The notes beneath the pieces were generated by a model, which was not told where the DNA came from, did no database searches, and saw only the letters and a program-made list of their open reading frames with translations. Shown here piece by piece: positions 824-40,551 of a stretch of 44,496 nucleotides of DNA. The stretch comes from Candidatus Omnitrophota bacterium (GTDB lineage Bacteria > Omnitrophota > Gorgyraeia > Gygaellales > Profunditerraquicolaceae). The position numbers and the translations under genes are program-made. Each line of letters starts with the position of its first letter. Position 1 is the first letter of the stretch. The DNA is taken from positions 1 to 44,496 of the forward strand of contig JAUYEC010000145.1 of NCBI GenBank assembly GCA_030691585.1. The letters are read 5' to 3'.

Positions 824-854
824 TGTAGGGGCGGGTTTCAAACCCGCCCCTACA
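824..854. repeat. family-A REP-like palindrome (A1 subtype): TGTAGGGGCGGGTTTCAAACCCGCCCCTACA
   Basis: Read directly: 14-bp arms GTAGGGGCGGGTTT/AAACCCGCCCCTAC around a central C. It starts 10 nt after the glmS stop. Confidence 0.95.
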
Positions 855-874
855 ATTGAATGCATGGCAGATTT

Positions 875-932
875 TGTAGGGACAGGATAATATGCTGTCC
901 CTCGATGGACAGCATATTATGCTGTCCCTACA
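875..932. repeat. doublet of family-A palindromes (A4/A3 hybrid followed by a 5'-truncated A3)
   Basis: TGTAGGGACAGGATAATATGCTGTCCCTCGA followed by TGGACAGCATATTATGCTGTCCCTACA. The central base is A in the first and T in the second, so the two copies are in opposite orientation (REPIN-like pair). Confidence 0.9.
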
Positions 933-960
933 GTGAATCCGTATCGGGTACCATCAAAAA

Positions 961-1614
961 ATGCTTTATATCGTAGCTACCCCTATCGGCAACTTAAAAG
1001 ATATAACTCTGCGGGCGATAGAAACTCTTAAGTCCGTTGATCTGATCGCCTGCGAAGACACCCGCCACACAAAGATCCTCTTAGATGAATACGGCATCAA
1101 GACTTCCACCACCAGCTATTTTCAGCACAACCGTTTCGCTAAGGGCGAATATCTTTTGGGCCTGCTGAAGCAGGGTAAAAATATCGCCCTGGTTTCTGAT
1201 GCCGGCACGCCCGGCATACTTGACCCCGGATACCACTTGATCAACCTTGCGATAGAGCAAGATATCCCGGTTACCGCCATCCCCGGGCCAACCGCTTTTA
1301 TTGACGCGCTGGTTTTATCCGGCAAGCCCACGCATGATTTTATCTTTGCCGGTTTTCTGCCTAACCGCACCCTCGCACGGCAAAACTGCCTTAAAGAGTT
1401 GAGCAAGCAAAAGCGCACCATTGTCTTCTACGAATCCTACCACCGCATCCTTGCCACCCTGGAAGATATCCACAAGGTTTTTGCAGGCCGCGAAATCGTT
1501 GTTGCCAGGGAACTTACCAAGAAATTTGAAGAAATAAAGCGCGGCCCAGCCGAAGAAATCCTCTCTTCTTTCCAGCGCCAAAGCCCTCGCGGCGAGTTCG
1601 TAATCGTAATATAA
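961..1614 (+). CDS. rsmI: 16S rRNA (cytidine1402-2'-O)-methyltransferase
   Basis: The N-terminus MLYIVATPIGNLKDITLRAIETLKSVDLIACEDTRHT... and the later SDAGTPGILDPG are the tetrapyrrole-methylase-fold RsmI signature. The 217-aa length fits the short form. Confidence 0.85.
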   Translation: MLYIVATPIGNLKDITLRAIETLKSVDLIACEDTRHTKILLDEYGIKTSTTSYFQHNRFAKGEYLLGLLKQGKNIALVSDAGTPGILDPGYHLINLAIEQDIPVTAIPGPTAFIDALVLSGKPTHDFIFAGFLPNRTLARQNCLKELSKQKRTIVFYESYHRILATLEDIHKVFAGREIVVARELTKKFEEIKRGPAEEILSSFQRQSPRGEFVIVI

Positions 1615-1742
1615 AATCGTTTTAAAATGTCCAATTTGTATTAATTGGCTTTTATTGCCCAATTTTCATGCCCTGTCGGCATAATCGTACGGAATAAGCA
1701 ACCTCTGCCCCACAAAATGCAACCGCTTTCCCGAAACCCCTC

Positions 1743-1772
1743 TTAACCCCTTGAATTACCTTTATATATAAT
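1743..1772 (+). promoter_or_regulatory. candidate sigma70-type promoter upstream of the giant ORF
   Basis: TTAACC (1743-1748), an 18-nt spacer, then TATAAT (1767-1772), in an AT-rich tract containing two copies of TTTATATATAA (1761 and 1778). The -35 is weak, so the call is tentative. Confidence 0.25.
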
Positions 1773-1829
1773 GTAAATTTTATATATAACGGCTGATAAG
1801 CTAAAACGACTTTTAATGCGCAATTATCT

Positions 1830-1860
1830 TGTAGGGACAGGTTTGAAACCTGTCCCTACA
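1830..1860. repeat. family-A palindrome (A2 subtype): TGTAGGGACAGGTTTGAAACCTGTCCCTACA
   Basis: Perfect 14-bp arms around a central G. It ends 17 nt upstream of the giant ORF start codon. Confidence 0.95.
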
Positions 1861-1877
1861 GAAGAATCCAAAGTAAA

Positions 1878-1964
1878 ATGATTAAAATAACCGTCAGAAA
1901 AATCTATAAAATATTAACCATTCTACTCTGCTTTCTGCTTTGCTTTGAACAATCCGGTTTCGCC
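1878..1964 (+). other. Sec-type signal peptide of the giant protein (aa 1-29)
   Basis: MIKITVRKIYK (basic n-region), ILTILLCFLLCF (hydrophobic core), EQSGFA|QVAG (small-x-small cleavage context). Confidence 0.75.
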
Positions 1965-4900
1965 CAGGTTGCCGGGCAATTGGATATTTCCGGCTACCTC
2001 ACCCAGCTGCGGCAGTCCTGGACTACCGACAAATTCCGCCCCTTGCACCTGCGTTACCTTTCCTACGATAATCTGAATAATACTTTTAAGCTCCTTTTGG
2101 ATAAAGGAGATCAATCGAAAGATTCTGTAGGGACAGGTTTGAAACCTGTCCCTACAACAAACGGTGATAGCGCTCCTGTAGGGACAGAACATCGTTCTGT
2201 CCCTAACATCGAAACAGAGACCAAAACTCTGCTCAATTATTTCTTCATCGGCGTTTCCCTGCCCAACGACACATTCTGGGTCAATCTGCGGCCCGACTCG
2301 CCGGACAACATGATCGATCCGCTCCTTGCGTCAACTGACGTCGGTAAGATACTCTTGGAAGCCGACGTCCAGCTAAAGAAAGACACCGCTAAATGGACTT
2401 CTCCTGATTCCCCCGAAGGCAGAGAATACTGGGATAAATTATACCAAAAAGCCGGTGAAATCTTCGGCTCTGAAAATATCACTATTCCTACTCTTACCCG
2501 TCCCTGGATCGTGCCCGATGAAATCATTATCCGTGAATCAGATACCAATGCCTATATTTACAAAGCCACGCTCAAGGTAATGCTGGAGGAAGATTATCTC
2601 AACAACAACGGTAGGGACGGGTTTGAAACCCGCCCCTACAATTTTGATGATCCGCGTCTTAAAGAACTAAACGTCTATTCCTCCCAGCTTATTCGCGAAC
2701 TGATCATCCCCAAACTTACCAAAGAAATCAACATCTCCAAGCGTTACGCTCCCCTAAGGCAGGTTTATTATTCCCTGATCATGGCCCAGTGGTTCAAACA
2801 GAAATTCTATGGTTTGGGAGGATTATATTCCTCGCTGATTGACAAAAGAGACCTTTCCGGATTAACCTCTAAAGAACAATGGTCAAAAGACACCTACTTT
2901 GCTGCCTACCAGAAGTCCTTTAAAGACGGTGAATATAATTTTAAAGAGCCGGTGCGTACCCTTTTTGGCCAGAGTATCAGGAGTTATTTTTCCGGGGGGT
3001 GTGCTATAACCGGTGATTCTGTGGCTGCAGCTTATGCGACAGGAGGCAGGATAACGGCTGGCGCAAACAGAAGATTGCCGCCGGAATTAGCAAAGAACGG
3101 CCGGTTCGTTGATGGCAAGGGAGGAACGCCGGACGATCTTGCTCTAAGCGGGGCAAGCCCGTCCCAATCTGTCGCCGCGCCAAGCGCGCAGACGGCAATT
3201 AAGACGGCAACGCAGAATAAAGATGTCCGCTATTTTAAGTTAGGGGACGTGATTTGCGGCGCGTATGACCCGGTGGATGGCCAAATGTATTTTGATTTTG
3301 ACGCGATTAAAAAGGCATTACCTGATATAACAAAAGCCCAGGCAGTAAATTTACTCTATTTGCATGAAGCTTTTCATGAGGTAATCGACAGGGTAGGTAT
3401 TGTAATTGAAAACGAAGAAGCGCTGGTTAATGCTTTAGCTAAGGAGAAATTAAATATAACGTTGACGACGGAAGAAAACGGCGCATTAGCGGCCTGCCGC
3501 GGAGGAGAAGCATATAAACATTTACAAGGCGATGCTAAAGGCCTGCTTGATTATAAACCTTTCGCTGCAGAAAAGATCGGGACGTTTGAGGATCCGATCG
3601 GGGATTTTATGCTTAATCTGCAACGTATTCTGCCGGGCGCAGCTTTTAACAAAGTCCAGGCAGCTGTCTTTACGCAGGAATTTATTAAGAAGCTCGAAGG
3701 GCATGGAGCACGATTTAGGACGGCAACAATGGAGGCACCTGCCGATGAGGCAACATCAATAACCGGTACGGCCGCTGAGGAGATCGATGTTACTTCTTAC
3801 GCGGAATCCGCTAACGGCGCCAATGGTCAAGAGCCGCGTGATGGCGGAAGGCTAAAATTGCGCCCGCTTCGCGAAGACTTGTCAAAAATGAAATTGGAGG
3901 CAGATGACCTGCTGCCTGTCGGGCTAGGCGACTCAGGCGCAGATATTGCCATGCGTCAAAAGATAGCAAAAATAATGAACGGCCTGACGGTTAATATTGT
4001 GTTTGACCAGGCACGGGAAGAAGAAAAGTATGTATATGCGCAAGATGTGGGATCTGAATGGGTCAATAGCCAGGTTAAATCATTAGCCGCCCGGGATGAG
4101 GATATGTATAAGGTCGGGCGTGCCTTAGAAAGCGCGCTTGAACAAAATATACAATTTCAGATTGAAAAGAAAATTTTGAGCTATTGTCAGCAAAACAGCA
4201 GATTTTTGTCCCGCCAGCATCCATTGGTAGAGGCATTGCAGGCCTATTTGGACCGCACGGCTGATCCCGGCAAGCCAAAGGCCCGTTTATTTGTGGCAAT
4301 AGACGGAACCGAAGCCATGGGTTTTTCTTTCGGCAACAGCATTGTCGTGAATTTAGCCCTTATTGCAGCATTGGATACTATAGATGAAGCCGTAAGTGTG
4401 CTTTATCATGAACAGCAGCATCATGAAAGATATTGGGATCGCGGGTCCTTGGGCCGCGGTGGCGTGTTCGCCTTTATCAACGACATATCCAAGAGTAGGC
4501 TTCAGGAACATGAGGCTGACCTTGTCACGCCCGAAAAATTAGCCAGGGTCGGGCTTAATACTTCCGCTTTGTCAGATGCGTTGCTTAAAATAGCCGGGGT
4601 TCGTTCTCAACAGGATATGACGCACGGAAACGTCTCAAGAAGGGTCCTTGCGAACCTGATTTGGCACAAAAAAATAGATTTGGAAGGCGGGGTCACTGAC
4701 GGCAGGGCCCAAGTAAATATTCCCATGCCTTCTGACTGGAGGCCTGCCGAGATACTGCCAAATGTAAACGAAAGGCTATTGGCTGACGGTATGTCCGATT
4801 TCCGCCGCGCGGTTGCCGAGGCGCCGGTAGATATGCTGCTCGGTGTATTAAAAAGTTTGGTTGAAAAAACAGGCGCTGACAATATAGATAAACTTCTCTT

Positions 4901-7900
4901 TGTCATTTCTCATCTTGGTAAACAAGTATCTTCTGATGCAAGGAGAGCCGGATATTCACCGCGCCAGGCGGAATTAATGGCCCTGGCCTTATTAACAAAA
5001 GCCGGGGGAACGGATGATTGGCTGAAGCTCTATTTAGTCACTTTGGGCCGCGCGTCAGAAAGGATCAAGGAAATATTACGCAGGGCGGCTGTGTCTGCCT
5101 TGCAAGAAGTAAATGGCGATCCCCTGCTTGATAACCGCGGGGCGATGGCGGCAGGCCGCCAATTATTTAATGCCGACCTGAACCGCGCGGCCGATATTGC
5201 TGCCAGGGCATTTATTTATGATAGGAAAGTAAGACAGGGCCTGTTCGCGGACAGCCTTGAGGTGGCAGATGACGGTTATTTAATACCGGCCGCCTCAGAA
5301 CTATGGCAGCTTGCAAATCGCAGAAAGGCCGGGCAAAAAGAATTTTTTATGCAATACGCGCCTCTAATGACAGGTTGGTATGTGGATAATTTCTGGAACA
5401 ATCATCCTAATGACCATGCAAATTTTCTAGTTCTCGTCGCGCAGTTAAAAGCTGCGCACGCGCATTATCGGCAATTGGCCGATGTCAGCCAGCAGGAACT
5501 TATAGGCATGTATGATGTGGAAGTCAAGCTGAAAAGCAAGTTGCTAAACGACCCCAGTGCGTACGCTTATTCAATGAGGCTCGTCGAAATGGCCATACCA
5601 AACCATATAATAAGCGCGCAAGAGGCGATTGAAACGCTCTTTGAGATAAAAAATGAGGCTCTGGATATTTTGATAACTGCCCTGCGTGATAAAAACGAAG
5701 CGGCCTTTCTGCAATTATTGGCAAAACATCCCGATGCGCTGCTGAATAGTTTAGAGAATTGGCACCGTGAACGCAGGCTTGTCGAGCTTGGAGAGAATTC
5801 GCCTGAAATATGGAGCTGGCTGTATGAAACAGTGAAGAGCAATTGGCATAAGGATTCATTTGTGTTTCCTTCATCCATTCCGGATCCGGGCAAGAAGGGG
5901 CTCGATTTAGCGGATTCATTAGGCATACGTTACGCAATGGAGGGAAGAGATGACCCGATAACGCCCGATGCAAAAGTGCAGCCCGGATTAAGCAGGCTGT
6001 ATTATGCCATAGAGATAATCTGCTGGCTCAAGGTGCGCAGCTCGACAGAAAGGGCGCGCATGATAGAAGAATTTCTGGGGGGCCAAGAAGCCGTATCAGT
6101 CGTGAATTCCGCGCCCTGGATAGCCTTAGAATCTATTTTGAGATCGCTGGGCTCGGGCGGCTTCTCCAATGTCAATGCGCCTGATGATGAAACAAACGAA
6201 ATTCAAAAAGCATGCCGGGATAGAGTATTAAATACTTTGCCTTTTCTCCGCGTGAGAGATGGTTTATTGGTTTACCTGGCCGCGGCAGAAGATTTGAGAC
6301 AGGGTGGAAAAATATTCGGGAAGCTTTCGGAATCGTGGGATCTTTACGGACGAAGTTGGGGGAAAATTAAGGCGCAAGGCTTCTCGGAAGCCCATAATCG
6401 CTGGCTCGCGCCTGCCAACCGCGGTTACTGCGAATTGCTAAAAAGGGCATTATCTTCGCTGGATATTGCAAGCGAACCCGAGGAAGCAAGGAATTTTTAT
6501 TTTAAGCTAGCGGAATTCCTTCCCCCCGGCGCGGAAAGATCCGGTGTCTTGCGAGCCTATGCGATGCGTTTGGTAGAGCAGCTTCCTAGAGGCGAGCTGC
6601 ATTGGTTTTTGAACGAACTATCGCGTCAGGGCCAGATGGACAGGCAGATCTATGAACATTTTGTGCAGGTCAGGGTAAAAACATACAGGGAAGATTTCAG
6701 GGAATTTAAAAATTTCCTCAAACAGAACATAAATGAACTTGTTACAAGCGGCGACCTGAAGTTAAGCGGGTTAACCGCCCTAGACACGGTACTTGATCAA
6801 ATACTGAATGAAAATCTCGCCCGAGAGGTATTTGTTGCCATGCTCGGTTCCGGAAAGAATGATGCCGCTTTGCAGGCCCTGCTTGTGCCATATTGGTATC
6901 AGGCTATGGCCCACACGGAAGGTTTGGGATATTACATCATTAATAATAACGGGCGATTGGAGGTGGCCGGGGTAAACAAACCCAGGTTTGTCTCGTTTCC
7001 CCAATTCATGGATACGCTCTACAACATAAGCCCGGTTGTAAAGCTGATGATTTTGGAGAAATTACTCTTAAGCCCTAATGGATTATTACATCAATCTAAA
7101 GAGGCAGATGCCAATTATGGCAAAAAAGAGTTTGCCGCGGCTTTAGCCCAAAACTTGCCGCAAGATGGAGAATTGTCTGGATTGATAAGGGATGTTCTTT
7201 TTGCCTCAGGGGAATCACTGGAGGCAGAAGTGATGTTTTTGGCGTTAGCCAACCCTTTGCTTTCACAGTTTTTGCAAAGGCCCCCATCCGGGATTCGAAC
7301 GAACAACACCGAGTTAGCAGAAGCGATAAAAAATAACTTGAACAAGCACCATTCTTTTTCAGATAAAGTGCTGGCTGCGGTGGGGAGGCATGATATCAGC
7401 GCTTATGCGGATTTCCTGGACCGCTATAATAGCATTACTGCAACAAATGTTAAGGCAGGTTGGGAAACAGAAGCAGGTATAAGCTCGCTATATGATTCGC
7501 TAACGCAATCATTTGGCTTTCGGCCCACAGAAGCATCTTCCAAAGGCCCACAGGTATCCGCGGCAAGCGGCCCAATGAATATAATTGTTGAAGCCTGCCA
7601 AAGCTTAGGCCCTGTCGGCGTTAGGTTCTTGCAGGTTTTAGGGCAATATATGGACATACCTGAAGAATACCAGGAAAAATTCCGGGATATCTACGATTCT
7701 ACCAAGGGGCAGGATAAATTGATTGCCTTTAATACGCTAGACGCTTTATATTACGCTGCCATAGATCACCCGGAGAACCAGGAATTAGCGGAAATAAAAA
7801 AGTTTATAGATGAAGATCTTGTTTCTTTGGACAGCCAGATTGGAGGCGGTTCTATTGTGACCGTATTCTTAGTGACAGTGCGCGATCGTGATGCGTCCGG

Positions 7901-10900
7901 ACACATTTGCGAAACCACGCACCAGGAGGTTTTAAAAATAAGAAATCCCAACGCCGAGATGTGGGTGCGCCAGACGCAGGAACGGGCGTTGAAGATTGTT
8001 GATGTTCTGGAAAGACAGGCGCGCCAAAGAGGAGATTCGAAATCAAAGATTAAGCAATTTACGGTTGCAAGGAGAGTCTTGCGTGATATCGGAGAATGGG
8101 TTATCCAGGATATAAGAGACACAAGCTTTATGGAGTTGGACGCCCATTACAGCAAAGCGCATGAAGGTGCCGTCGCAACTAACGGTATGAAGGTAAGAGT
8201 ATCGCAAGCCAAACGGCCGAATAACAAAGATGTCAAGCGGGAATCTCTGGTTCCGGGTATAACCTTGAACAAGCTCTTAAAGTTGGCTTCATCGCCTAAG
8301 CCTATCGAGGAACTTATCAGGGAAGCGGACGACGCTTATACGTTAGAATTATTGCAGCAGGCAAAAAAAGAGGGGTTGGCCCCAGCTGAAATTTTAAAGC
8401 GCGCAACAGCCGCCGTAATAGAAGATTTTTCCCGCGGCCTGGCAGAACCAGCCTTTACGGAAAACGGCAGGGGAGTTTATTTGTTGCATTCAGACGTACA
8501 CTTTGGTAACGCTATTATCACGCCTGATCTTAAGGCGGTTTATTTAATTGACCGCAATCTTTATCTAAGGATGGATAAAGCAGATGTGGATTTTGTCCGT
8601 AAGATAGCCACGGGTAAGGCCTCGGATAAATTTGCTACACTGAGGGCGATCGTAGACTATTTCCTGGGTTTGCCGGAAAACAGGGGTTCGGTCCTTTTAT
8701 CAGGGTGGGGTTTTCTGCGCAGGTTTGGATTAGCAAGGGAAATAGGATTAAAAGTGCGGGCATCCGGATCGAGCAGCCCCTTTGTGACAATGATGATGGT
8801 CCTCCAGGAATTAGAATCGCGTAACGTAGTCATACCTTTACGGATGAGGATCATGTTTAAGAACCTCGCATCCATAAATGCGATGCTGGCTAAGACTGGA
8901 GCCGGTAATTTCAGTGATTATGTGAAGGCCGCTGAAAGAAATGCCCATGAGCCTCTGGCAGCAGGTAGTAGGATGCCCGAGAGGCTCTCCGCAGAGAGCG
9001 TTATTACCGACAAGCAGGAGCTTAGTCTTTTTGTTGTTCAACATGATATTAGCTGGACTCTCCGGCCCGATGAAGGCACACTGGGCATACAGGATATTAA
9101 AGATAGCAGATTGACTGCTTTATCCATGGCAGAAGACGGCGAAAGCGGGGACATTACCTATGACGGGAAAAGGCTCCATTTTTATAGGGTGAATAAAGAT
9201 GGGAAAGAGTTTTATCTTATTGTGACCGGTGGTATTGCCGAGCCGGATCCGCGACGCGTCCCCGGCGCGGCGGCGCAGGAGAGTAGAACACAAAGGGAGC
9301 AGCAACCGGATAAGCAGTTAGATCAAGATCCAAAGCCACAAATGACACGCCGGGCATTCTTACTAGGTGCGGCCGGCGCGACAACGGCCGCAGCATTAAT
9401 AGTGGCCGCGGGAAGATTGATTAAAGAAAAGAGATTGCCAGTTCCCCAGGACCAGGAATTATTAGATATTTTTAAACAAGGTGAGTCTTATTGGCGGACT
9501 ATTTCTGATGATCCCGAAAATGTCCCTCTTCCAGACCGGTTGGCCTTAGGAAAATTAATGTGGGAAATAGGGGAAACAGTCGATATCGGCTTCCGTCAGG
9601 AAACCGCGACGGGGGCTTATGACGGCGCAAGAAGGTTGTATTCTTCGCAGGAATTGCTAGATGCTGTTTTCGGTGTGCAGAGAGAGGCGTTGGATAGAGG
9701 GGATTTCGACAATGAGAAAAGAAAGATAAAGGAGCTGATTTTGTACCTGGCAGAACAAGTTTTTAGAAAGGAATTAAGGAATCCGCAAGGCTCGGGATCC
9801 GTTGCAAGTTCTATTGAAAGGGTTTTGGAGAAACTTGTGGAAATAGGAACTAATCCCGGTTCCTTTTTCCCGAGTCCAAATAGGGAGGTAATTAAAGAAG
9901 AAGTTAAGGGATTTTCTTTCTATCTGGAAGTTAAAAAGCGGTCTTATATTACCGGTCAATCCAAGACAGAAGAGGTAGTATCGGAAAAAGAGCAGCAAGA
10001 ACAAATCTTCCTAATGAAGGCCAGGCTTGCTTTTCAGTTGTATTATTATTTCCCTGCATTTAAAGAAGAAATATTGGGCAAAAGATTGATAAAAGTTAAT
10101 ATTCATTTAGCCGATAATATGGCGGATTTTGAGAGGATGGGCGCGGCAATGAATGGGGTAACTAATCCTTACGCATTTGAGGTAATAGAGGCGCCTGTCC
10201 ATGGGAGTTATTCAAAAGCCATGCGTAGTTTGAGTTTCCCTTTACGGTCCCTGTATTTAAGGCAATCCTTAGGGGATGACATCTCCTTACACGAGATGGG
10301 GCATTTGATAAGCTATATTTTAGGATGGGGGGATGAGAGGCAAGCGGAGAAGATAGCCAGGGCTATCTTGAAATTAAACAGTTCCGCATACAGAAAAGTA
10401 TTCCCCATTAAAAAAGGAAAGATTATCTTGCCAAAAGCGGATGATTACGGAAGCAGGGATTATTCTAAAAAAGATATAGAAATGGTCTATGCTCCTTATT
10501 CCCCCGACAAGGAAACTTTTGCTAATTTGTTTATGCTTTGCGAGATCGGCACGGATTTCCCCGAAATAGTTAATAGCGGCATTACCGAAAACGAGAGAGA
10601 CGGCGAAGAGGCAAAGGCAATATATTCAATTTTGTCCGCTTGGCGGCAATTCCTTTTAGAGCACGGGTACAAGGGAAATCCTCCATGGTTTAAAAAAGGA
10701 AAATCTTTGTCGGCTGAGGCTAATACAGCGGCTACTGCCGCTCGAATAACCTATGATGCACAGCAATTAAGGCAATCCTTGCAGGATGGCTCACTTGACT
10801 TGAGAGGAGTGGAAGGCAGCGGTATATCGGAAAAAGACCTGGAAGCATGGCGGGCACGCCAGGCACAAGGACAGCCTGCGGCGCAGACGCAAAACGTCCC

Positions 10901-13900
10901 CAGCGCGGCGGCTAAAATTGCAGAAGAACAATGGGGGGATGAAGGGGAAGATGTAAGCGCAGGTAGTGCACGAGATGCCGTTGATCTGAGTAAGTTAACC
11001 CGTATCAATTCTATCAGCGAAATACTGGTATCGCCAAGATTTATTGAATATGGACAAGCGATACGCACAGGGAGCAAGCCCAAAGACAATCTATATGGAG
11101 AGATTGTAATATTGGACGCGGATCCGACAACGGCTGAATTAGAAGAGATTGCGAATCTGCCCTATGAAATGGCGCTTTTCAAAATTAAAGATGGTAGATG
11201 GGTAGTGGGTGTCGGCAACGGCCATAGTCCGCCGTTAAGAATGTATAAAGACAACCAGTTAAAGGCAATGGTGATAATAGCTATACATAATCACCCCGGC
11301 GAAGGCTTAGTGCCTTCTCCTGAAGATATTGGCGCAGTTGAAGGAATGGAGCGCGCCACGCATGTTATTTTAGCAGGAAAAATCGCAATGATTTATCGCG
11401 GACTAGATGCCGCGCAGAAACGGAAACTAGAAGCAGGTTTTGCCGAACGGATGGGTATGCCGGAGGCCGCTTCCGCGCCCATGCCTAACGCGGCCACCAT
11501 TGAATTAAAAGCGCGTTGGGAGGAAATAAAGGCGCAGATGGCGGCAGAGATTAGGCAAACAGGCGTGACCATAAGCGTGGATGAGCAGTGCAGGAGAATT
11601 TTGAAAGTATATCAGGATATAGGAATGGACTTTAGGACTTTGTCTATTCCAGGATTGGTTGCGAGGCTTGATCTATCGTCTGCGGATACTTTTGTTGTGC
11701 CCGGAGCGTTGATTACCGCGTTGGAAAAAGAAGGATTGGTTGGGCGCAGTTTTGAGCAGGCGCTGTTGGGCATGCATAGAGGCTATAAGGCAGAAATCGA
11801 AAACGAGTATCCGGCTTTCGCCAACCTGCTTGCACAACCCGGCAATAGATTGGATTGGCACCATATCATACAGGCAGTTGCCGATCACAAGTACGTCCGT
11901 TGGCTTGCGCGTCAGCTTGGTGCCTCTTACGAAGATGTTTTTCTGCGCTTTAACGCTTCAAGTATCGGCCCGCAAGATCAGCTTTCTTTTGCCGATAAGC
12001 AGAAGGTTATCAACGCCCTTTTGGCTTCTGTGCATAGCGTGTATTTTGATTCTAAGGGCAGAAGTGTCAATATGCAGGGCTACCTCGAGGATTATTACGG
12101 GCCCTTGGGAGTTAAGGTCTCTGTTCGTTTTGAAGAAGCCACAGGGGCTTTGCGCGAAGACGTTATTAAGAAGGCGCTATGGGGCAGGATGAAGACTGAT
12201 AAAGCCCTGGGAATTCTTAATATTCTCAGGGAAGGAGGTATGCCGGCATTAAAACAGCGGCCCGAGTTTCTGGATATCGCAAAAGCTATTGAGCCAATAT
12301 GGAATGCAGAGGTGCCCATTCCTATTGTTTTAATAAATTCTCAAGGTAGAACATTTGAGACTATCATTGTGGCCGCTAAGATTACAAAAGAGGGGGTGTC
12401 CGGCCCGGCTACGGCAGCGGTTGTCCTTCCTTTAAAAAATATTCAAGGGGAGATCATCTTGATGGATGTCATCAAAGATATAGAGACTACCCAGGGGGTA
12501 TTTGATCTTTTGGGCAAACTGATTCATGAATTAGATCACGCGGTATTGATGACTGTGACCGGACGGCAAATTTATCACGCCAGTATATTTGCGGAAGGCG
12601 CCGCCGAAGAATCCTTTGCCGCCTTTATGGCAGCGCAGGATGGGCCGATGAGCCGCAACGGCGTTGACGGCCTTGATTATGATTCCGCTATCAGGTTATT
12701 TGACCGGCAAGCCGATCCGGACAGAGGGGCCGTTCCTTATACTGCCGGATGGCTCATGGCCCATGCTTATCGCGGCGTAATGGGTGAGCAGGCATACTTT
12801 GACTTATTCTATAATCCGGATAAATACGCGCAGGCTCAGCCTGTAGCTGATGCTTTTATAGGCGACTTGGAGCAGGTTTTAGCACCCCGTCGGCCGATCT
12901 ATAGAACATTATTTAGCCCTGTTTCAGCCCCAGCCGTTACTTCCGCCGCCGTCGGCGAAAGGCGCTATGCCGCACCAGAAATAAGGCAGATGATGCAAGG
13001 TAAAACACTTGACCTGCGATCGATGACAGGGGCCCCCGCAGACATAACCGATGACACCATCTTAGTTCTGACTCCTGATAGCGAATACATAATTCGAAAC
13101 GGCGCCCATATGGCAGTTCACAAAAGAGATAATTATTATTGGATTGAAGGCGGCGGCATGCCGGAGGAGCTTATTCGGGCAAGGCAAGAGCGCGAGCGCC
13201 AGGCGCAGGTCGGACAAGGCCAAACAAGCGGCCCCGGCGCGGCGGAGCGAGGTGATCGGGAGACTGTTAAGCGAAATTTACGCGCTGCTATTCAGTTAGC
13301 TGATGCCCGGGCGAAGACCGCCAGCGATTCTTACTACAAGCACAGCCAGATATTAGCAACAGCAAAAGAAGACCTTGCCAATTTCGAAAGGGGTATTTCT
13401 TCGCTGAAGGCACAGCTGGGTTATGCAGACAACAATATTAAGTCTAAGCAGCAAATACTGAACACTTTGCTGGGCAACCAAAATCAAGATTTTGCCAATA
13501 TGGGTTTTTGGGAGAGACGAAAAAACAAAGGCGCAAATGCTCCATACGCAGCGCCTATTGCAAGCGCGCAGGAAAAATTGCGGGAATTGAATGCGAAAAA
13601 ACAGGAATTGCAGTATTCCTTAACAGAAAAAACCGTTGCCCTTGAGGAACAAAAACAAAAAGTTGTTTCTTTGCAGGCCGAAAATGACCAGTTGGCCAAA
13701 ACAAACGATGAGGCAAAACAAGTTTCGTTGGCCCTCGCAATTATTGATGACATGGGGACTAAACAAATGCTGACTCCAGAGGACCAAATGCACATTGTTG
13801 CTCCCGAACGCCTTTCGGCTATTGCCCGGACAGCACCAGCAGGGTATATCCGGCAAACCATTTATCTTGCTGCCAAGGGAAAAATTGAAACCGGAGATCA

Positions 13901-16900
13901 GGCCAAGCCCTGGCTTTTGGAACGGTTAAAAAATGATTTTAATAATACAAGCCCATTAGTCAATTCTTATTCTTTAGAAACATTATCTATGGAAACGGTT
14001 GATCGGACCAAGAAGTTCCTCTCCCAGGCCGATTTTGATAATAAATCCACCGATGCGCAGTATGTCTTTTCGGAAATGCAAAAACAAGGAATCGATTTGG
14101 CCTCGGCCGATTTGCCGGAAACATTTGCCCGTATCCTGGCTGAGCGGGATATCAGGTCAGCGCAAGGCGAAGGCCAGGGGACCGGCAAGGTTTCTCTTGT
14201 GTCAGTTCAACGGGATCACTTTATGGCCCGATATAATCGGGAAAATATTTCCCGCATGAGCATGGAAAGATATCTCGCCTTGTACGGGCAGACCGCGGCC
14301 AAGGATTATGTGATCCATGGTTTTAGCTGGGCAAGTCCGAAATTCCCGCAGGTTTTGGCAGAAGGTAAACTTAAGCCTTCTGCTCCATATCAGAAAACAA
14401 CTTTTGGCACAGGGGCGCAAACGCATTCAGTACATTTCTCTGTTAATGAATCGGCTTACAATAATCCGATCGGTCTTTTTGCGCCAATCGGTGCGGTGAT
14501 CCAAAACGTGCCGTTTCAGATGATGACAAACTCCGAAATGGCCAGCTTGGCTAATGACTGGCCGGTGGCCGGGGACCAAGAGGTGACGCTGGACATCGGC
14601 ATCTTGCTGGTGCCAGACATATTGGATCCTGCGAAAAGTTTTGATGGTCAGAGGTTAGCGGAGATAGATTTACGGTGGCAGAGTGCCAGTAAAGCGCAAC
14701 AGTTAAGCATGCTTGCAGAAGCCCGAAGAAATATCCAGTCTTTGATACAGCAAGGTCAGCGGGTTTATTTTTATAAAGCGAATCTGGATCACATCTATTA
14801 CATGAGCAGCGGTGTCGAGCAGCTACTGAGAGATAAAGCGGAATTTGTTAAGAGGGGCGGGACTGTTGATGAAACGTTTTTGAATAAAATTGTGAATCCC
14901 GACAAACACACTCCCCAAGAGATAAGGATTGCAGGAGATTTGGAATATTCGCACAATGTCGCCTTAACCGATTCGCAGGAGGACACATACAAGTTCTCTC
15001 ATAGCCAACCGGGCTATACAAATACTAAAGGTCAAGGTTTGTTTGTGAAAGTAACAGCATTCAGGCAGGGAGGTGTAAAAGAGACAAATTTTGGTGCATC
15101 AGAAACCGTTCAGTCATCTTTAAATGCCCGGCAAATCAGGGATGCCTTGGATAACGGCAAACTTGATTTAAGGGGTGCGGCCGGCGGAGTAATTACGGAG
15201 GCGATAATTGACGATAGCGCCGTATTGGATTTAACTCCACGCGCTGAATATATCATATTAAACGGCGCCCGGCGAGCAGTTCACAAAGTTGGAGATCATT
15301 ATGAAATCGGCGCTGAAAGCGGCGGAATGCCGGAAGAGCTTATCCGGGCAAGGCAAGAACGCCAGCGCCAGGCGCAAGGACAGCCTGCGTCGCAGCCGCC
15401 AAGCGGCCCTTCCGCGGCGGAGGACGGAACAAGGGGTGTTGTGTATTATCATCAGAGCGATGTTGAGATCGATGGATCGCTAGGGCCATCTAAAACAGAT
15501 GTCTTAGCGGGTGTTTGGTTAAAACGCGAACCAGCTGATCTGAGGTTGCAGGGTAAATCTTTGGGGCGGTATCAATACGTAGTTCAAGTCAGCGATAAAA
15601 CAGAAAAAAACACATTGACCGTTACAAAGATAACCCGATGGGTTGGAAAAGCAGGAGAGCCTAGAGATAAGACTCAAGGCACATTGCAAGATTTTCTGAT
15701 TGAAAACGGGAGGCAGGATTTAGCCGAAAGACTACAGAGGGGATATACTAAGTTGCCTGGTGCAGAATTTTTAACAGCCTTGCGCCATGATCTCACTGAA
15801 TTTTTGTTGCTTAGAGGGTATAAATATATTGAATTTACAGATGCCGGTGATATCGTTGGCCGCGGTTTTGTTGAATTTCCAGCGGTGATTGCCCTTGAGA
15901 CAGCTAGTTTATCAATTTCCGGAAGGGAATTTACTCCAGTCGCCGTCGCGGCGGGAGAAGAGAACCGGACGATTGGCAACGGTATAGCCGTTGGCTTCAA
16001 GACTTCGCAAGGCAGCGCATATACCTTAAATGGGACTAGTACGCAACGCAATAAAACAAGTCATGCTTTTCACGATCCAAAGGATGTTGGTGTTAAGCCC
16101 ACAAGCGAGCGTACTTACTATGTAGCTCCCGAAGCGGCAAAGTGGATAGGAGCGTTCCAGGGGTTAGAAGGAGGTATCGAACACAGAAGGATATATATAA
16201 ATAATGAAGGCGTTTCCACAATCGCTTTTCACAAAACGAAAAATCGATGGGTTAGATTCGATGGCCCATTTAAAATTTCCAATACGCCGCAAATTGGTTT
16301 GTGCCCGCTGGAATTATGGGGAGAGGATTCCCAAGCAGGGAATGCGTACTCATATAACGAATGGCATCCGGGTAATCAAATTGTTGAAATAGTTTATGGA
16401 GATACTCAAATAGCACAAAAAGAGGAGCAGCCGCCAAGCGTCCCCGGCGCGGCGGCAACCTCCGTTACTTTGATCAAGGCAGATATATTCCAGGATATAG
16501 CGGATCGATATGAGGGGGCCTCTTGGGATCCGTCGCTGTTTGATGATGAAGATTATCTGAATGCCGAAGGTAAATATAACCAAGAGCCGGCATATAGATT
16601 CCGCAATAGAATACCGCATTATCTTGCGGCCGTAGAAAGATTAGGCCAAATACGTGCCACAGTTGCTGAAGGCAAACAATTAACGCAGGAACAGTTAATA
16701 TTAATAAAAACGATAGAAGTGCATTTTCGTTTACGTGGTTACTTGTGGTATTGGGAAGAGACGGGAAAGAGCAGGGTAACATTTCCGGCGAAAGTGACAT
16801 TGAGCCGCGCGCTCAACATGTTGTTCGGTCAGGTCAACGATTTGGATCATATGTTGGATTTCTTCGAACTTATGCTGCTTAGGCATGTGAATAGTTTCGC

Positions 16901-21073: not shown

Positions 21074-21104
21074 TGTAGGGGCGGGTTTTAAACCCGCCCC
21101 TACA
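21074..21104. repeat. family-A palindrome (A1, TTTTAAA centre)
   Basis: TGTAGGGGCGGGTTTTAAACCCGCCCCTACA, a perfect palindrome between pyrR and pyrB. Confidence 0.95.
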
Positions 21105-21116
21105 GTGGATATGTGT

Positions 21117-22061: not shown

Positions 22062-23328
22062 AAACGGGCGCGTAATTGACCCGGCCGCAAACAAAGACGA
22101 GATCTCGGATATCCTTATAGACGGCGGCAAGATTATAAGCGTTGCCAGGGATATTAAGAATGGATGCCGGCAGGTCCTTGACGCCGCGGGAAAAATTGTG
22201 CTGCCGGGCCTGGTGGATATGCATGTGCATCTGCGCCAGCCGGGCAGGGAAGACAAAGAAACTATCGCTTCCGGCACTGCCGCGGCCTTAAAAGGCGGAG
22301 TGACCAGCGTCTTGGCTATGCCCAATACCCTACCTGCGATAGACAGCCTGAAAAATGTCAGTTTATTGCAGGGTATAATAAAAAAGGATGCCCAGGCAAA
22401 TGTTTTTATCTGCGGCGCTATAAGCCTGGGCCGCCAGGGTAAAGAATTAGTTGACCTGGCCCGGATGAGGAAAGCAGGTGTTTTAGCTTTTAGCGATGAC
22501 GGCTCATCCGTTGATGACGCGGAGTTGTTGTTAAAGGCTTTTAAAAAAGCCAGAGAGTATAAAGCGCTTATTATTTGCCACTGCGAAGATAAAATCCTGT
22601 CCGCAGGCGGAGTAGTGAACCTGGGTTTTACCTCCACGCGGCTGGGCTTGCGGGGAATCTCCCGGGAATCGGAGTATAAAAGGATCGAGCGCGATATCGC
22701 CTTGTCTGTCCGCGCAAAAGCCGCCTTGCATATCGCCCATGTCAGCTGCCGGGAATCAGTGGAGATCATCGCACTTGCCAAAAAGAAAGGCGCTGACTTG
22801 ACTTGTGAGACCGCCCCGCATTATTTTTGCTTGACCGAAGAGGCAGTGCTCGGTTACGATACTAATATGAAAATAAACCCGCCGTTAAGAAGCAAGGATG
22901 ATGTTTTGGCCATTAAGCAGGGCCTGGGTGACGGCACCATTGATGCGATCGCTTCGGACCACGCTGGGCATACGGAAAACGAAAAAGACATTGAATTCGA
23001 ACGGGCGGAATTCGGCACAACCGGCCTGGAAACGGAATTGGCAGCGGCCGCGACGGAGTTGGTGCATACGGGGATACTGGATTGGCGGCAATTAGCCGCA
23101 AAGATGTCGTTAAATCCTTCCCGGATACTGGGAATAAATAAAGGGGCCCTTATCGTCGGAAGAGACGCGGATATAGTTATTGTGGATCCGGATAAAGAAT
23201 GGGTAGTGCGTAAAGAGGATTTTATTTCCGGATCCAAGAATTCCGCTTTTACCGGAAGAAAATTTAAAGGGGTAGTGGAATATACCATTTGTAACGGGAA
23301 AATCGCGTATAAGACGGAGACCGGATAA
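22036..23328 (+). CDS. pyrC: dihydroorotase
   Basis: MKNSRILIKNGRVIDP...LPGLVDMHVHLRQPG... (amidohydrolase H-x-H) and ...DHAGH.... The start at ATG 22036 overlaps the pyrB 3' end by 26 nt. The track ORF extends 15 codons further upstream. Confidence 0.92.
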   Translation: MKNSRILIKNGRVIDPAANKDEISDILIDGGKIISVARDIKNGCRQVLDAAGKIVLPGLVDMHVHLRQPGREDKETIASGTAAALKGGVTSVLAMPNTLPAIDSLKNVSLLQGIIKKDAQANVFICGAISLGRQGKELVDLARMRKAGVLAFSDDGSSVDDAELLLKAFKKAREYKALIICHCEDKILSAGGVVNLGFTSTRLGLRGISRESEYKRIERDIALSVRAKAALHIAHVSCRESVEIIALAKKKGADLTCETAPHYFCLTEEAVLGYDTNMKINPPLRSKDDVLAIKQGLGDGTIDAIASDHAGHTENEKDIEFERAEFGTTGLETELAAAATELVHTGILDWRQLAAKMSLNPSRILGINKGALIVGRDADIVIVDPDKEWVVRKEDFISGSKNSAFTGRKFKGVVEYTICNGKIAYKTETG

Positions 23329-24566
23329 TGGAATTTATCGCCGATTTTCATATCCATTCCAAATACTCGCGCGCCACGAGCCGCGATATGGATGTTGCGC
23401 ATATCGCAGAGTGGGCAAAGCTTAAAGGCATTACGCTTATGGGCACGGGAGATTTTACCCATCACCTCTGGCTGGAAGAATTAAAACGCACCCTTGAAGA
23501 CCTGGGCAATGGTTTGTTTAAGCATAAAGATATTTACTATATTCTTACCAGCGAGATCAGTAGTATTTATTCCAAGGGTGGGCGGTGTTATCGAATTCAC
23601 AATATGGTTATTGCCCCGTCCTTTAAAACGGTAGATAAGATTAATGAAACTTTGTCTAGGTATGGAAATTTGGCCAGTGACGGCCGGCCGATACTGGGAA
23701 TGGATGCCGAGGATTTGGCGCGCATTGTTTTTGATATTGATGAAAACTGTATAATTATTTGTGGTCATATCTGGACACCGTGGTTTTCTTTATTCGGATC
23801 AATGTCTGGCTTTGACCGGATAGAAGATTGTTTTGGGAAACAGACAGAAAAACTATTTGCACTGGAGACGGGCCTGTCCTCGGATCCTGCAATGAACTGG
23901 AGACTTTCCGCGCTGGACAGGTTCACCTTAGTCAGTAATTCCGATAGTCATAGCCCCTCAAAGATCGGACGCGAAGCTAATGTTTTTAACTGCGAGTTGG
24001 ATTATAAAACGATCAGGGAAGTATTAAAGACAAAGGACAAGAAAAGATTTTTATACACCATTGAATTTTTCCCCGAAGAAGGGAAGTACCATTACGACGG
24101 GCACCGTTTGTGCGGAGTGAGGCTTTCTCCCAAAGAGACCAAGGAGCATAACGGACGTTGCCCAAAATGCGGGAAGCCGGTGACTGTGGGGGTAATGAAC
24201 CGCGTGGACCAGCTGGCTGACCGGCCCGAAGGGGCGAAGCCCGATAATGCTATACCTTTTAAGAACCTGATCTCTTTTGATGAGATCATTGCCGAGACTA
24301 AAGGTGTGGGCAAGGGGTCAGTGGCAGTAGAAAGAGAATACCGAAGTTTGGTCTCTAAATTTGGAACAGAATTCAACATACTGCTGAAGGCTTCAAAAGA
24401 AGAATTGCTTAAAGGCCTGCCTCCGCGTGTGGCTGAAGGAGTCTTGCGAGTGCGCGAAGGCAAGGTCAATATTAAGGCCGGCTATGACGGCGAATACGGA
24501 ATAATCTCAATTTTCGGCGACGAAGATAAACCCGCCGCGCAAGAGCAGCAATTAAGCCTATTTTAA
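23328..24566 (+). CDS. endonuclease Q-like PHP-domain protein with Cys4-type zinc finger
   Basis: MEFIADFHIHSKYSRATSRDMD...GTGDFTHHLW is the PHP metal site, laid out like archaeal and Bacillus EndoQ. A central CGVRLSPKETKEHNGRCPKCGKPV zinc ribbon is present and the 412-aa length fits. The TAATG overlap with pyrC is 1 nt. Confidence 0.65.
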   Translation: MEFIADFHIHSKYSRATSRDMDVAHIAEWAKLKGITLMGTGDFTHHLWLEELKRTLEDLGNGLFKHKDIYYILTSEISSIYSKGGRCYRIHNMVIAPSFKTVDKINETLSRYGNLASDGRPILGMDAEDLARIVFDIDENCIIICGHIWTPWFSLFGSMSGFDRIEDCFGKQTEKLFALETGLSSDPAMNWRLSALDRFTLVSNSDSHSPSKIGREANVFNCELDYKTIREVLKTKDKKRFLYTIEFFPEEGKYHYDGHRLCGVRLSPKETKEHNGRCPKCGKPVTVGVMNRVDQLADRPEGAKPDNAIPFKNLISFDEIIAETKGVGKGSVAVEREYRSLVSKFGTEFNILLKASKEELLKGLPPRVAEGVLRVREGKVNIKAGYDGEYGIISIFGDEDKPAAQEQQLSLF

Positions 24567-29965: not shown

Positions 29966-30652
29966 ATGAAGAAACGCATCAAGACTAACGGTTTCATAAT
30001 TTTTTTTAGCGTTGTGCTGATCGCGTTGTTCCCGGATAAGTTCCTGCGTTTTGCTCCGGGCCGGCTGGATAGCTTGTTAAGCTTATTGGGCTTGGCACTT
30101 TTGTTTTGCGGGATGCTCTTGAGGATCTCCGGCCGCGGGTATAAATCGGAACAGTCCGCGGGCGGTATCTTTTTAGTGCGGGGCGGGCCTTACGCCTTAG
30201 TCAGAAACCCGATGTACCTGGGTATTCTTTTGATCGGCGCCGGAGTTATATTGAGTTGTTTTAAATGGTGGCTGTTGTTGATCTTTCTGATCGTGCTGGT
30301 CGCACGCTACCTTACCCTGGTTTTTAAGGAAGAAAAATTATTGCTCTCGGCGTTTGGACAGGAGTATGCCAAGTATTGCATTAAGACTCCGCGGCTTTTC
30401 CCGCGGCCGCAAGACCTGCTTAAAAAGGACATAAGCTTTTACCTACCCCTGAAATTAAAATGGGTCAAAAAAGAGGCGAACAGCATGATCCCGATCATTT
30501 CGGTAGTGTTTGCCTTAAGGCTCTGGGCGGGATTTAAGTCCGGGGAGTGGGTCATTTTTATCCCGCAGCTTATCGGCATGCTCGGGATGGTTATATTTTT
30601 TGCCGTCTTGACAATGTCCCTGTCTAAAAAAGAAACTGTAGGGACAGCATAA
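29966..30652 (+). CDS. isoprenylcysteine carboxyl methyltransferase (ICMT)/phospholipid methyltransferase family membrane protein
   Basis: Polytopic hydrophobic protein with LVRGGPYALVRNPMYLGILLIG...FKEEKLLLSAFGQEYAKYCIKTPRLFP, the ICMT/PEMT-family C-terminal signature. The last 5 codons and the stop lie inside the palindrome at 30637. Confidence 0.75.
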   Translation: MKKRIKTNGFIIFFSVVLIALFPDKFLRFAPGRLDSLLSLLGLALLFCGMLLRISGRGYKSEQSAGGIFLVRGGPYALVRNPMYLGILLIGAGVILSCFKWWLLLIFLIVLVARYLTLVFKEEKLLLSAFGQEYAKYCIKTPRLFPRPQDLLKKDISFYLPLKLKWVKKEANSMIPIISVVFALRLWAGFKSGEWVIFIPQLIGMLGMVIFFAVLTMSLSKKETVGTA

Positions 30653-30667
30653 TATGCTGTCCCTACA
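30637..30667. repeat. family-A palindrome (A3) overlapping the 3' end of the ICMT-like CDS
   Basis: TGTAGGGACAGCATAATATGCTGTCCCTACA. It reads ...E-T-V-G-T-A-stop, with the TAA stop in the central CATAATATG. Confidence 0.95.
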
Positions 30668-30682
30668 TATTTGATTGAATAT

Positions 30683-34403: not shown

Positions 34404-34434
34404 TGTAGGGGCGGGTTTGAAACCCGCCCCTACA
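34404..34434. repeat. family-A palindrome (A1)
   Basis: TGTAGGGGCGGGTTTGAAACCCGCCCCTACA, identical to the copy at 33701. Confidence 0.95.
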
Positions 34435-34451
34435 TAGCTGAGGTAAGAACT

Positions 34452-40429: not shown

Positions 40430-40458
40430 TAGGGACAGGTTTTAAACCTGTCCCTACA
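40429..40458. repeat. family-A palindrome (A2, TTTTAAA centre)
   Basis: GTAGGGACAGGTTTTAAACCTGTCCCTACA. Confidence 0.95.
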
Positions 40459-40477
40459 GCGGATATCCAAAAGGTTT

Positions 40478-40508
40478 TGTAGGGACAGCATATTATGCTG
40501 TCCCTACA
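40478..40508. repeat. family-A palindrome (A3, central T, i.e. opposite orientation to 19124/30637)
   Basis: TGTAGGGACAGCATATTATGCTGTCCCTACA. Confidence 0.95.
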
Positions 40509-40551
40509 GGATGTAATCATAAATCAATATAGAAAAAGGAGGAGTGATATC

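Follow-up and report, generated by a model that had tools for sequence, protein, structure and literature searches.

The 44,496-nucleotide (nt) stretch of DNA analyzed here (contig JAUYEC010000145.1 of assembly GCA_030691585.1, from a Candidatus Omnitrophota bacterium; hereafter, the window) contains an open reading frame (ORF) of 5,745 amino acids (aa), referred to below as the giant, that carries six enzyme motifs: the HExxH pentapeptides HEAFH, HEQQH, HEMGH, and HELDH, the JAMM signature HNHPGEGLVPSPED, and the HSDVHFGN loop of an ABC1/UbiB-like kinase (Table 1). An initial annotation of the window had assigned all of these motifs to one polypeptide and had suggested that the combination fits either self-processing of a polyprotein or a cocktail of effectors aimed at the proteins or envelope of another cell. 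Translation of the window confirmed the observation itself. All six motifs lie in one uninterrupted ORF, each at the nucleotide that had been reported for it. Chance expectations were computed from the amino acid composition of the giant. Four HExxH pentapeptides were observed versus 0.11 expected [P(≥4) = 6e-6], although the probability of a single chance occurrence in 5,745 aa is ~0.11. The corresponding expectations were 0.006 for the JAMM pattern (HxHx7Sx2D, which HNHPGEGLVPSPED fits exactly) and 0.001 for SD.H.GN. Taken together, the motif set far exceeds chance. Database protein P0009 was rejected as an independent orthologue because it is identical, residue for residue, to the giant.

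Two of the six sites, HEQQH and the kinase loop, belong to one preexisting two-enzyme cassette (aa ~760 to 2365). This region is 36% identical to proteins P0001 and P0002 over ~1,700 aa and 27% identical to P0003 over ~1,560 aa; P0003 is partial, aligns from aa 880, and does not include the HExxH. The cassette is also collinear with stand-alone proteins of ~1,500 aa (P0004 to P0008), which lack both signal peptides and transmembrane (TM) segments. Between its two enzymatic ends is a long middle region that looks helix-rich by eye and that is conserved jointly with both ends in P0001 to P0008. In P0001, P0002, and P0003, different modules are attached to the same cassette. By eye, P0003 seemed to have a RelA/SpoT-type HD domain and P0002 a nucleotidyltransferase; Pfam confirmed neither.

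The HEQQH site had been described as M48-like, and its homologues bear this out. The Peptidase_M48 profile (PF01435) matched the giant at 14.0 bits (E = 0.046), below the Pfam gathering threshold of 20.3 bits, but it matched collinear homologues above that threshold (24.0 bits for P0002, 34.9 for P0004, and 34 to 44 for P0005, P0007, and P0008). The two histidines and the glutamate of HExxH, together with E and D of the downstream QEHEAD, are invariant in eight M48 sequences.

The ABC1/UbiB-like kinase core was likewise substantiated through homologues. The ABC1 profile (PF03109, gathering threshold 22.9 bits) gave no match to the giant itself at E ≤ 1, whereas P0005, P0007, and P0008, which share 22 to 25% identity with the giant across ~780 aa, matched it at 51 to 66 bits (E of 1e-13 to 4e-18). 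The giant has a KxGQ-like RFLQ (aa 1916 to 1919), a GGGS loop (aa 1989), VLK (aa 2018 to 2020), and IDRN (aa 2224 to 2227). Across an alignment of nine sequences, R.LQ, the GGGS loop, S-D-x-H-x-G-N, and the D-R equivalent of DFG are invariant; eight of the sequences keep the lysine of VLK, and the ninth has R instead. A profile search of the PDB with this alignment produced a weak match to the catalytic loop only (aminoglycoside and protein kinases, E = 0.019), and a PDB sequence search with the kinase and M48 region returned noise only. At locus L080 (positions 886 to 6244), the stop codon of the gene for the stand-alone M48-ABC1 protein P0005 overlaps the start codon of a gene for a patatin-like phospholipase, after which comes one for a T2SSE-type ATPase. 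This arrangement may point to a functional partner of the cassette.

The region from aa 2500 to 3699, which includes the HEMGH, JAMM, and HELDH sites, comprises three independent modules, each with a separate set of homologues in an exhaustive profile-free search. A PDB sequence search with this region returned noise only. The first of the three, designated module D, has homologues that are stand-alone proteins of 290 to 581 aa, and it also matches the first ~200 residues of the 820-aa protein P0019. The H, E, and H of HEMGH are among only 12 columns that are invariant in 11 sequences, and E2879, a candidate third metal ligand within a Y(D/N)PxxET..NL....G.DFPE block, is conserved in 10 of the 11. 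An AlphaFold2 (AF2) model built from the 11-sequence alignment had a predicted local distance difference test score (pLDDT) of 81 and a predicted template modeling score of 0.81, and it placed HExxH and E2879 on separate helices that follow beta strands. Pfam and PDB-sequence profile searches gave no match. Foldseek gave no significant match in the PDB or BFVD (none at E ≤ 0.001); the best viral matches, in BFVD, were phage entries named "large polyvalent protein" (E = 0.04, nonsignificant). Module D represents a conserved HExxH family that is absent from Pfam and is probably a zincin.

Immediately 5' of module D, an internal methionine followed by TRRAFLLGAAGATTAAALIVAAG begins a stretch resembling a twin-arginine (Tat) signal. 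With a hydropathy of 1.94, it is the sole hydrophobic segment of the giant other than the N-terminal one. The stand-alone module D homologue P0014 starts with a twin-arginine signal, MAVTRRKFLVGAAA, which indicates that the module D family includes at least one protein predicted to be exported in its own right. The internal stretch, which matches this N terminus of P0014, is the relic of a signal from a once-separate gene. A similar internal sequence, MPRRKFTLGILKGVVAAAALL, is present in the paralogue P0040. The 8-mer ATCCAAAG lies 9 to 11 nt 5' of both the annotated start and the internal ATG. Translation starting at the internal methionine was considered and set aside: no ribosome-binding signal distinguishes it as a start, and the genes of this organism generally have no Shine-Dalgarno sites.

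The second module of the three is a JAB/JAMM domain, and the complete signature reported for it is conserved. It is 46 to 50% identical to segments of two other Omnitrophota mosaics, P0010 (3,584 aa) and P0012 (2,083 aa), the latter of which shares its N-terminal head domain with the giant. E3097, H3137, H3139, S3147, and D3150 are conserved in both. The RadC profile (PF04002, gathering threshold 22.1 bits) scored 19.3 bits against the giant, 18.4 against P0010, and 25.2 against the P0012 segment; the match spans only profile positions ~62 to 98 of 121, or ~35 residues. In two canonical RadC proteins from a metagenome scan (L083 and L084), IHNHPGGxxxPSPED aligned with the motif of the giant at the same spacing, and the domain of the giant is ~14 residues shorter than canonical RadC between the SxxD helix and the last strand. 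These comparisons indicate that the JAMM signature is real and of the RadC type, within what appears to be a shortened domain. The AF2 model had a pLDDT of <50 straight after HNHP, across the S-x-x-D part of the motif.

Homologues of the third module, referred to here as the HExDH module, are stand-alone proteins, mostly of ~400 to 670 aa, and segments of other giants. One of the stand-alone proteins, P0016, has a Sec-type signal. Among 11 sequences sharing 17 to 35% identity, 17 of 327 columns are invariant, including H3550, E3551, D3553, H3554, E3573, and A3576. Exactly 18 residues separate the second histidine of HELDH from E3573 (in IFAEGAAEE); the gluzincin spacing that had been noticed at this site therefore has an invariant glutamate at its end. 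Three members of the family had weak matches, all to the same stretch of the profile, to DUF2268 ("predicted Zn-dependent protease"; E = 0.011 to 0.023). The AF2 model put the HExxH and Glu motifs on consecutive helices (pLDDT of ~90) after a beta sheet. The top Foldseek match in the PDB, dipeptidyl peptidase III (DPP III, family M49), was nonsignificant (E = 0.07, probability 0.47), and a PDB profile search found no match. Conservation supports the gluzincin assignment well, and structure supports it weakly. When the module D and HExDH families were compared with hhalign, only 15 residues around HExxH aligned (probability 1.5%), and the two families have no demonstrable relationship.

Conservation among homologues and predicted folds had been proposed as checks on the six motifs. 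Five are genuine catalytic-type signatures that are conserved, among them three of the four sites called zincin HExxH sites (HEQQH, HEMGH, and HELDH). The fourth, HEAFH, has no conserved context and no Pfam match around it. Homologues of its ~220-aa region were not found in the 79 paralogue loci described below, in the collected proteins, in a search of 5.8 billion proteins, or in the metagenome scan. A resemblance of HEAFH to a DUF4157-like minimal zincin, suspected by eye, was supported by no score and is not claimed. As for the folds, the motifs of module D and of the HExDH module lie on helices after beta strands or a sheet, but neither model gave a significant fold match and the JAB model is weak past HNHP.

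Most modules of the giant are separated by a spacer of ~100 aa that is placed exactly at the module borders. Its conserved end, YYxIxGG(G), leads into a charged helix (MPEELIRARQERERQAQ), after which comes low-complexity sequence rich in Pro, Ser, Gly, and Ala. The same spacer is found in P0010 (aa 862 to 964), at locus L001, and twice at locus L030. It is a candidate processing site. At least four modules of the giant have no functional assignment, and a PDB sequence search with aa 3800 to 5600 returned noise only.

The two ends of the giant are shared with other proteins. A putative Sec-type signal, read from sequence and hydropathy, precedes a head domain of ~350 aa; aa 7 to 377 are 61 to 65% identical to the N termini of P0001 and P0002, and aa 5581 to 5742 are 36 to 42% identical to their C termini. 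The head domain has 37 invariant columns across 26 sequences. When one genome per species in GTDB was scanned, at least 579 stretches encoding the head domain were confirmed by tblastn, and 79 loci (L001 to L079) were retrieved. Among the matches listed, nearly all records are labeled Omnitrophota or Omnitrophica (a few are "uncultured Planctomycetales," "bacterium," or "Deltaproteobacteria"), and a single metagenome-assembled genome has from 4 to at least 9 head-domain loci, some copies of which are in tandem. Loci L015, L022, L035, L047, L073, L078, and L079 are examples; two family genes are often in tandem. The head of the giant is 50 to 73% identical to most of the 79, and ~32 to 38% identical to L071 to L079. 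The tail domain, with the signature GGI(D/N)F...CIADILR, is encoded at 39 of the 79 loci and follows the head in frame in 36 ORFs; the tail of the giant is 35 to 43% identical to the best-scoring of these 39 and to the tails of P0001, P0002, and P0040. Head and tail define a very large paralogous family in Omnitrophota with exchangeable cargo between them, and the giant has the head, the tail, and the signal of this family.

The cargo of the family is variable. Complete ORFs with a full head-domain match at the 79 loci range from ~470 to 3,419 aa, and longer ones (up to 3,730 aa so far) extend beyond the locus. At none of the 79 were the giant's own M48, kinase, D, JAB, and HExDH modules found. 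Paralogues instead carry metallophosphatase and GNAT domains or, in P0010, methyltransferases. P0040 (4,842 aa; P0011 is a fragment of it) has an intein, HEAT repeats, a near-threshold Fic domain, an HExDH module, and the tail. HExxH is enriched approximately 10-fold in family cargo (17 observed versus 1.6 expected), but of 71 family proteins only 15 have any such site. In P0040, the intein (PF14890, E = 2e-22) lies within a giant paralogue, with aa 2327 to 2681 and 3873 to 3964 highlighted, and low-complexity linkers of the type SSPxAKPGAASPAE recur between the modules.

Table 1. The giant ORF and its parts, with positions in the window
Feature	Position (nt)	Strand	Residues (aa)	Motifs and details	Basis
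Giant ORF	1878..19115	+	5,745 in total	No internal stop	Translation of the window
Putative Sec-type signal peptide	1878..1967	+		MIKITVRKIYKILTILLCFLLCFEQSGFAQ; K/R-rich n-region, 12-residue hydrophobic core, small residues then Q	Sequence and hydropathy
Head ("N-leader") domain	1968..3008	+	~31-377	~350 aa, conserved	Identity to P0001/P0002; tblastn
HEAFH pentapeptide	3363..3377	+	496-500	Within a ~220-aa region, nt 3195-3857	No homologue
M48-like metallopeptidase	4155..4757	+		HEQQH, aa 844, nt 4407-4421; QEHEAD (E878, D882), aa 877-882, nt 4506-4523	Weak PF01435; homologues above threshold
Middle region of cassette	4758..7544	+	~961-1889		Collinear alignments with P0001-P0008
UbiB/ABC1-type atypical kinase	7545..8972	+		HSDVHFGN, aa 2204, nt 8487-8510	Alignment invariants; PF03109 in homologues
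Divergent spacer L0	8973..9317	+	~2366-2480	Ends in FYLIVTGGIAEP	Repeat comparison
Internal Met and Tat signal-like stretch	9342..9413	+	2489-2512	MTRRAFLLGAAGATTAAALIVAAG	Weak Pfam TAT_signal and TIGR02811 matches
Module D	9435..10712	+	2520-2945	HEMGH, aa 2805, nt 10290-10304; candidate third ligand E2879, nt 10512-10514	Homologues, AF2
Shortened spacer L1	10707..10910	+	2944-3011		Repeat comparison
RadC-type JAB/JAMM module	10965..11657	+	~3030-3260	E3097, nt 11166-11168; HNHPGEGLVPSPED, aa 3137, nt 11286-11327	PF04002, conservation
HExDH module	11658..12956	+	3261-3693	HELDH, aa 3550, nt 12525-12539; E3573, nt 12594-12596	Conservation, AF2
Spacer repeat L2	12960..13268	+	3695-3797	Ends in YYWIEGGGMPEELIRARQERERQAQ	Repeat comparison
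Glu/Lys/Gln-rich stretch and module	13269..15122	+	3798-4415		Weak coiled-coil-type Pfam matches only; no PDB match
Spacer repeat L3	15126..15443	+	4416-4522		Repeat comparison
Two modules	15444..17522	+	4523-5215		No Pfam, NCBIfam, or PDB match
Spacer repeat L4	17538..17843	+	5221-5322		Repeat comparison
Module	17844..18617	+	5323-5580		No Pfam, NCBIfam, or PDB match
Tail domain	18618..19112	+		~160 aa, conserved; GGINFTGMPIVTQP ... EIDKVLGCIADILRKEEE ...	Common to P0001, P0002, P0011/P0040, and 39/79 head-domain loci

Upstream of the giant are genes for a SIS-domain protein and a TP_methylase, and downstream are genes for a nucleotidyltransferase, pyrR-like, pyrB, pyrC, carA, carB, fpg, pyrK, pyrD, pyrF, and a V/A-type ATPase operon. 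All genes are on the plus strand, an order that suggested a phage origin, but the gene content excluded this possibility: the window has no phage or conjugation genes. The window, with its pyr genes, carAB, fpg, and V/A-type ATPase, is part of a bacterial chromosome and comes from neither a phage nor a plasmid. Named homologues of the giant are from Omnitrophota/Omnitrophica. A 412-aa ORF without a Pfam match lies between pyrC and carA (23328 to 24566), and a free-standing ORF of 328 aa resembling LAGLIDADG_3 homing endonucleases (41468 to 42454, E = 5e-14) lies directly 3' of the V/A-type ATPase cluster.

A perfect palindromic element of ~31 nt, of the form TGTAGGG[G/A]C[G/A]GGTTTnAAACC[C/T]G[C/T]CCCTACA or the variant TGTAGGGACAGCATAnTATGCTGTCCCTACA, is found in most intergenic gaps of the window (824-933, 1830-1861, 19124, 21074-21105, 29133, 30637-30668, 33701-33732, 34404-34435, 40452-40509, 42594, and 44397). 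It also occurs three times in frame within the coding region of the head domain (2126-2157, ~2177, and 2610-2641), where it encodes ..GTGLKPVPTT.., ..TEHRSVP.., and ..DGFETRPYNF... Homologues have similar GTVP, GQSP, or GLSP peptides at variable positions. The in-frame copies resemble the in-frame insertions of Rickettsia palindromic elements.

We judge, with modest confidence, that the giant is an exported, polyvalent, effector-like mosaic of several enzymes. The combination of motifs arises from module shuffling, and the giant is a mosaic rather than a single integrated machine. Each type of module has its own homologues outside the giant. The combination that had seemed singular is indeed all on one chain, but M48 and UbiB came as a preexisting cassette and the other modules are independent insertions. 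An effector role is favored because the cargo is polymorphic, because the family is highly paralogous, and because an ATP-dependent UbiB domain lies behind a signal peptide. Such a domain has no obvious use in the periplasm, and thus a UbiB kinase with this location would make the most sense if it ended in the cytoplasm of another cell. Of the two explanations offered in the initial annotation, the cocktail of effectors is therefore preferred, its modules having homologues elsewhere and its head and tail being common to a large family with different cargo; overall, the interpretation given in the initial annotation is partly supported.

In this reading, the cargo was assembled by fusion of modules found elsewhere as genes of their own, and it comprises the M48-UbiB cassette, a formerly separate Tat-signal HExxH protein (module D), a shortened RadC-type JAB, an HExDH module, and at least four modules with no functional assignment. 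The Sec signal would take the giant out of the cytoplasm, and the head and tail domains, by analogy, might handle sorting or display. The enzymatic modules would have an effector role, with targets among the proteins or envelope components found outside the producer and possibly in another cell. Cutting of the giant chain at its spacers may be a further task of some peptidase modules.

Several points weigh against an exported effector. Its export, delivery, and activity are deduced from sequence. The stand-alone M48-UbiB proteins suggest that the cassette normally works in the cytoplasm, because they lack signal peptides and TM segments. Were the internal hydrophobic stretch, aa 2493 to 2511, a true stop-transfer anchor, the C-terminal 3,200 aa would be left in the cytoplasm. 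No secretion-system or immunity-like gene flanks the giant ORF in the window. The head and tail domains had no match in Pfam, NCBIfam, or PDB-sequence searches, so that a sorting role is proposed by analogy only. No significant structural match supports the zincin folds of module D and the HExDH module, and HEAFH, which lacks a conserved context, may be a chance pentapeptide (P of ~0.1).

One alternative is that the giant is a housekeeping machine for quality control of the producer's own envelope or membrane, tethered to the inner membrane by aa 2493 to 2511, with M48 (as in BepA, HtpX, or Oma1) and UbiB (lipid/quinone homeostasis) acting on that envelope and the other peptidases adding processing. 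Members of both families are classically associated with membranes, as quality-control or lipid factors, the cassette is kept as a unit in other bacteria, and the gene sits among housekeeping genes. Most long Omnitrophota proteins are membrane-associated, according to the available text of a recent preprint (bioRxiv 10.64898/2026.06.07.730766). However, a stable architecture would be expected of such a machine, whereas each of the 79 loci has different cargo, and the modules attached to the cassette vary in P0001, P0002, and P0003 as well. There are many paralogues per genome, and the kinase would be on the translocated side of the sole TM candidate, where there is no ATP. We consider this explanation unlikely.

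A self-processing polyprotein, the other possibility raised initially, is about equally improbable. In this scenario the zincin and/or JAB modules would cut in cis at the spacers, for example after GGG, to free the cassette and the other modules, and the peptidases would be maturation enzymes. Consistent with this are the YYxIxGG(G) spacers, with variable or low-complexity sequence after them, exactly at the module borders and the co-occurrence of this spacer and this JAB module in P0010. Classical JAMM enzymes cut after Gly-Gly. However, spacer and JAB do not always go together: L030 has two spacers and no JAB motif, and P0012 has a JAB module and no detected spacer. Furthermore, since so few of the family proteins have any HExxH, in-cis processing by zincins cannot be a general requirement of the family. 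Zincin autoprocessing has been proposed for the polyvalent proteins of phages and plasmids, but the same source, in the sections available, argues that RadC-type JABs lack the groove for a ubiquitin tail and may not be isopeptidases (PMC5512222). Thus, the cleavage next to ubiquitin-like tags that the initial annotation had given for JAMM domains does not transfer automatically to the JAMM domain that is present here.

A further elaboration is that the spacers are tag-like domains ending in an exposed Gly-Gly(-Gly) and that the RadC-type JAB and/or the zincins cut the 630-kDa chain there, after export or delivery, into approximately eight enzymes in "polyubiquitin style," with the UbiB kinase working only inside another cell. 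We give this only a slim chance. If it were true, the head/tail family would be an unrecognized system by which ultra-small bacteria, as predators or parasites, deliver polymorphic strings of effectors. Finally, that the motifs are chance pentapeptides of a very long protein without catalytic meaning, for which the isolated HEAFH and the likelihood of a single chance HExxH are arguments, is very improbable, because four such sites occur, because homologues at 20 to 35% identity, with poorly conserved flanks, show no variation in HEQQH, HEMGH, HELDH, the kinase loop, or the JAB motif, and because homologues matched the M48, ABC1, and RadC profiles above threshold; it is refuted for every site except HEAFH.

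Omnitrophota are uncultured, mostly ultra-small bacteria that are suspected to be predators or parasites of other microbes. The means of predation or parasitism are sought mainly in their very long proteins, most of whose sequence is uncharacterized. With a family defined by its head and tail, candidate effectors can be catalogued throughout the phylum. The giant also adds two conserved HExxH families, with invariant candidates for metal ligands, that are absent from Pfam and PDB sequence searches, as well as a conserved cassette in which the coupling of an M48 peptidase to a UbiB kinase is unexplained. The spacers with Gly-Gly ends and the resident JAB and zincin modules offer a concrete processing hypothesis.

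Three of the enzymatic modules have both likenesses to and differences from the families to which they were compared. Like M48 peptidases (BepA, HtpX, Ste24, and Oma1), the giant has the HExxH helix, an invariant Glu in E-x-x-x-D, and a conserved preceding strand. Unlike them, it scores below the profile threshold (14 versus 20.3 bits), has no TM helices around the domain, and carries it inside a ~1,600-aa cassette that ends in a kinase. The kinase shares with UbiB/ABC1/COQ8 (PF03109) the KxGQ-like RFLQ, an equivalent of the nucleotide loop, the VLK lysine, an ExD-like helix, the HxDxHxGN loop (HSDVHFGN), and the metal-binding Asp (IDRN). It differs in being very divergent, with DRN for DFG, in being fused behind M48, and in its location behind a signal peptide instead of at the membrane side that faces the cytoplasm. 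With RadC-like JABs (PF04002), the giant shares the IHNHPxGxxxPSxxD spacing, the upstream Glu, and the following strand (THVILAG versus DHIIIG), but its domain is shorter, matches the profile over a short stretch, and lacks an HhH domain. What RadC itself does biochemically is unsettled.

Published giants of Omnitrophota, including the Archaeovorins and dockerin-type proteins (West-Roberts et al. 2023, bioRxiv 10.1101/2023.11.21.568195; bioRxiv 10.64898/2026.06.07.730766), resemble the protein described here in being very long and multidomain, with signal peptides and/or TM segments. An attack on other cells has been proposed for them, as has cutting of the chain by peptidase domains. As far as the available text of these preprints goes, they differ in having at least 30,000 aa and in carrying glycosyl hydrolases or transferases, methylases, NUDIX, C39/S8, and SecA-like or dockerin domains; M48, ABC1, and UbiB are mentioned in neither preprint and JAMM is not mentioned in the second. 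A family defined by the head and tail was not found described in the accessible portions of the literature on Omnitrophota giants.

MARTX and other multi-effector toxins have conserved termini, cargo that varies between strains, and processing into separate effectors. As in MARTX and polymorphic toxins, the conserved termini of the giant flank a string of effector-like domains that varies between paralogues. In contrast to those toxins, Pfam and NCBIfam searches of the giant detected no RTX repeats, cysteine protease (CPD), Rhs/YD, TPS, or other delivery domain, and no immunity gene is evident beside it.

Polyvalent proteins of phages and plasmids (Iyer, Burroughs, Anand, de Souza, and Aravind 2017, PMC5512222), as presented in the available sections of that study, carry one to five zincin-like metallopeptidase domains, as well as RadC-JAB domains, scattered among their other enzymes; autoprocessing has been proposed for them, and so have effector roles. 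Unlike these proteins, which are encoded by phages, prophages, or conjugative elements, the giant has its gene on a chromosome among housekeeping genes. Its frame of a Sec signal with a family-specific head and tail is particular to the phylum, and no DNA-directed modules (methylase, SNF2, ArdC-N, or primase) were detected in the giant. The M48-UbiB cassette is not mentioned for polyvalent proteins in those sections. The likenesses are nonetheless extensive: many unrelated enzymatic domains with interspersed zincins on one very long chain, a RadC-type JAB, metallopeptidases far from the classical families, and recurring combinations of modules. Polyvalent proteins are the nearest described concept for the giant, with MARTX-type toxins a further analogue.

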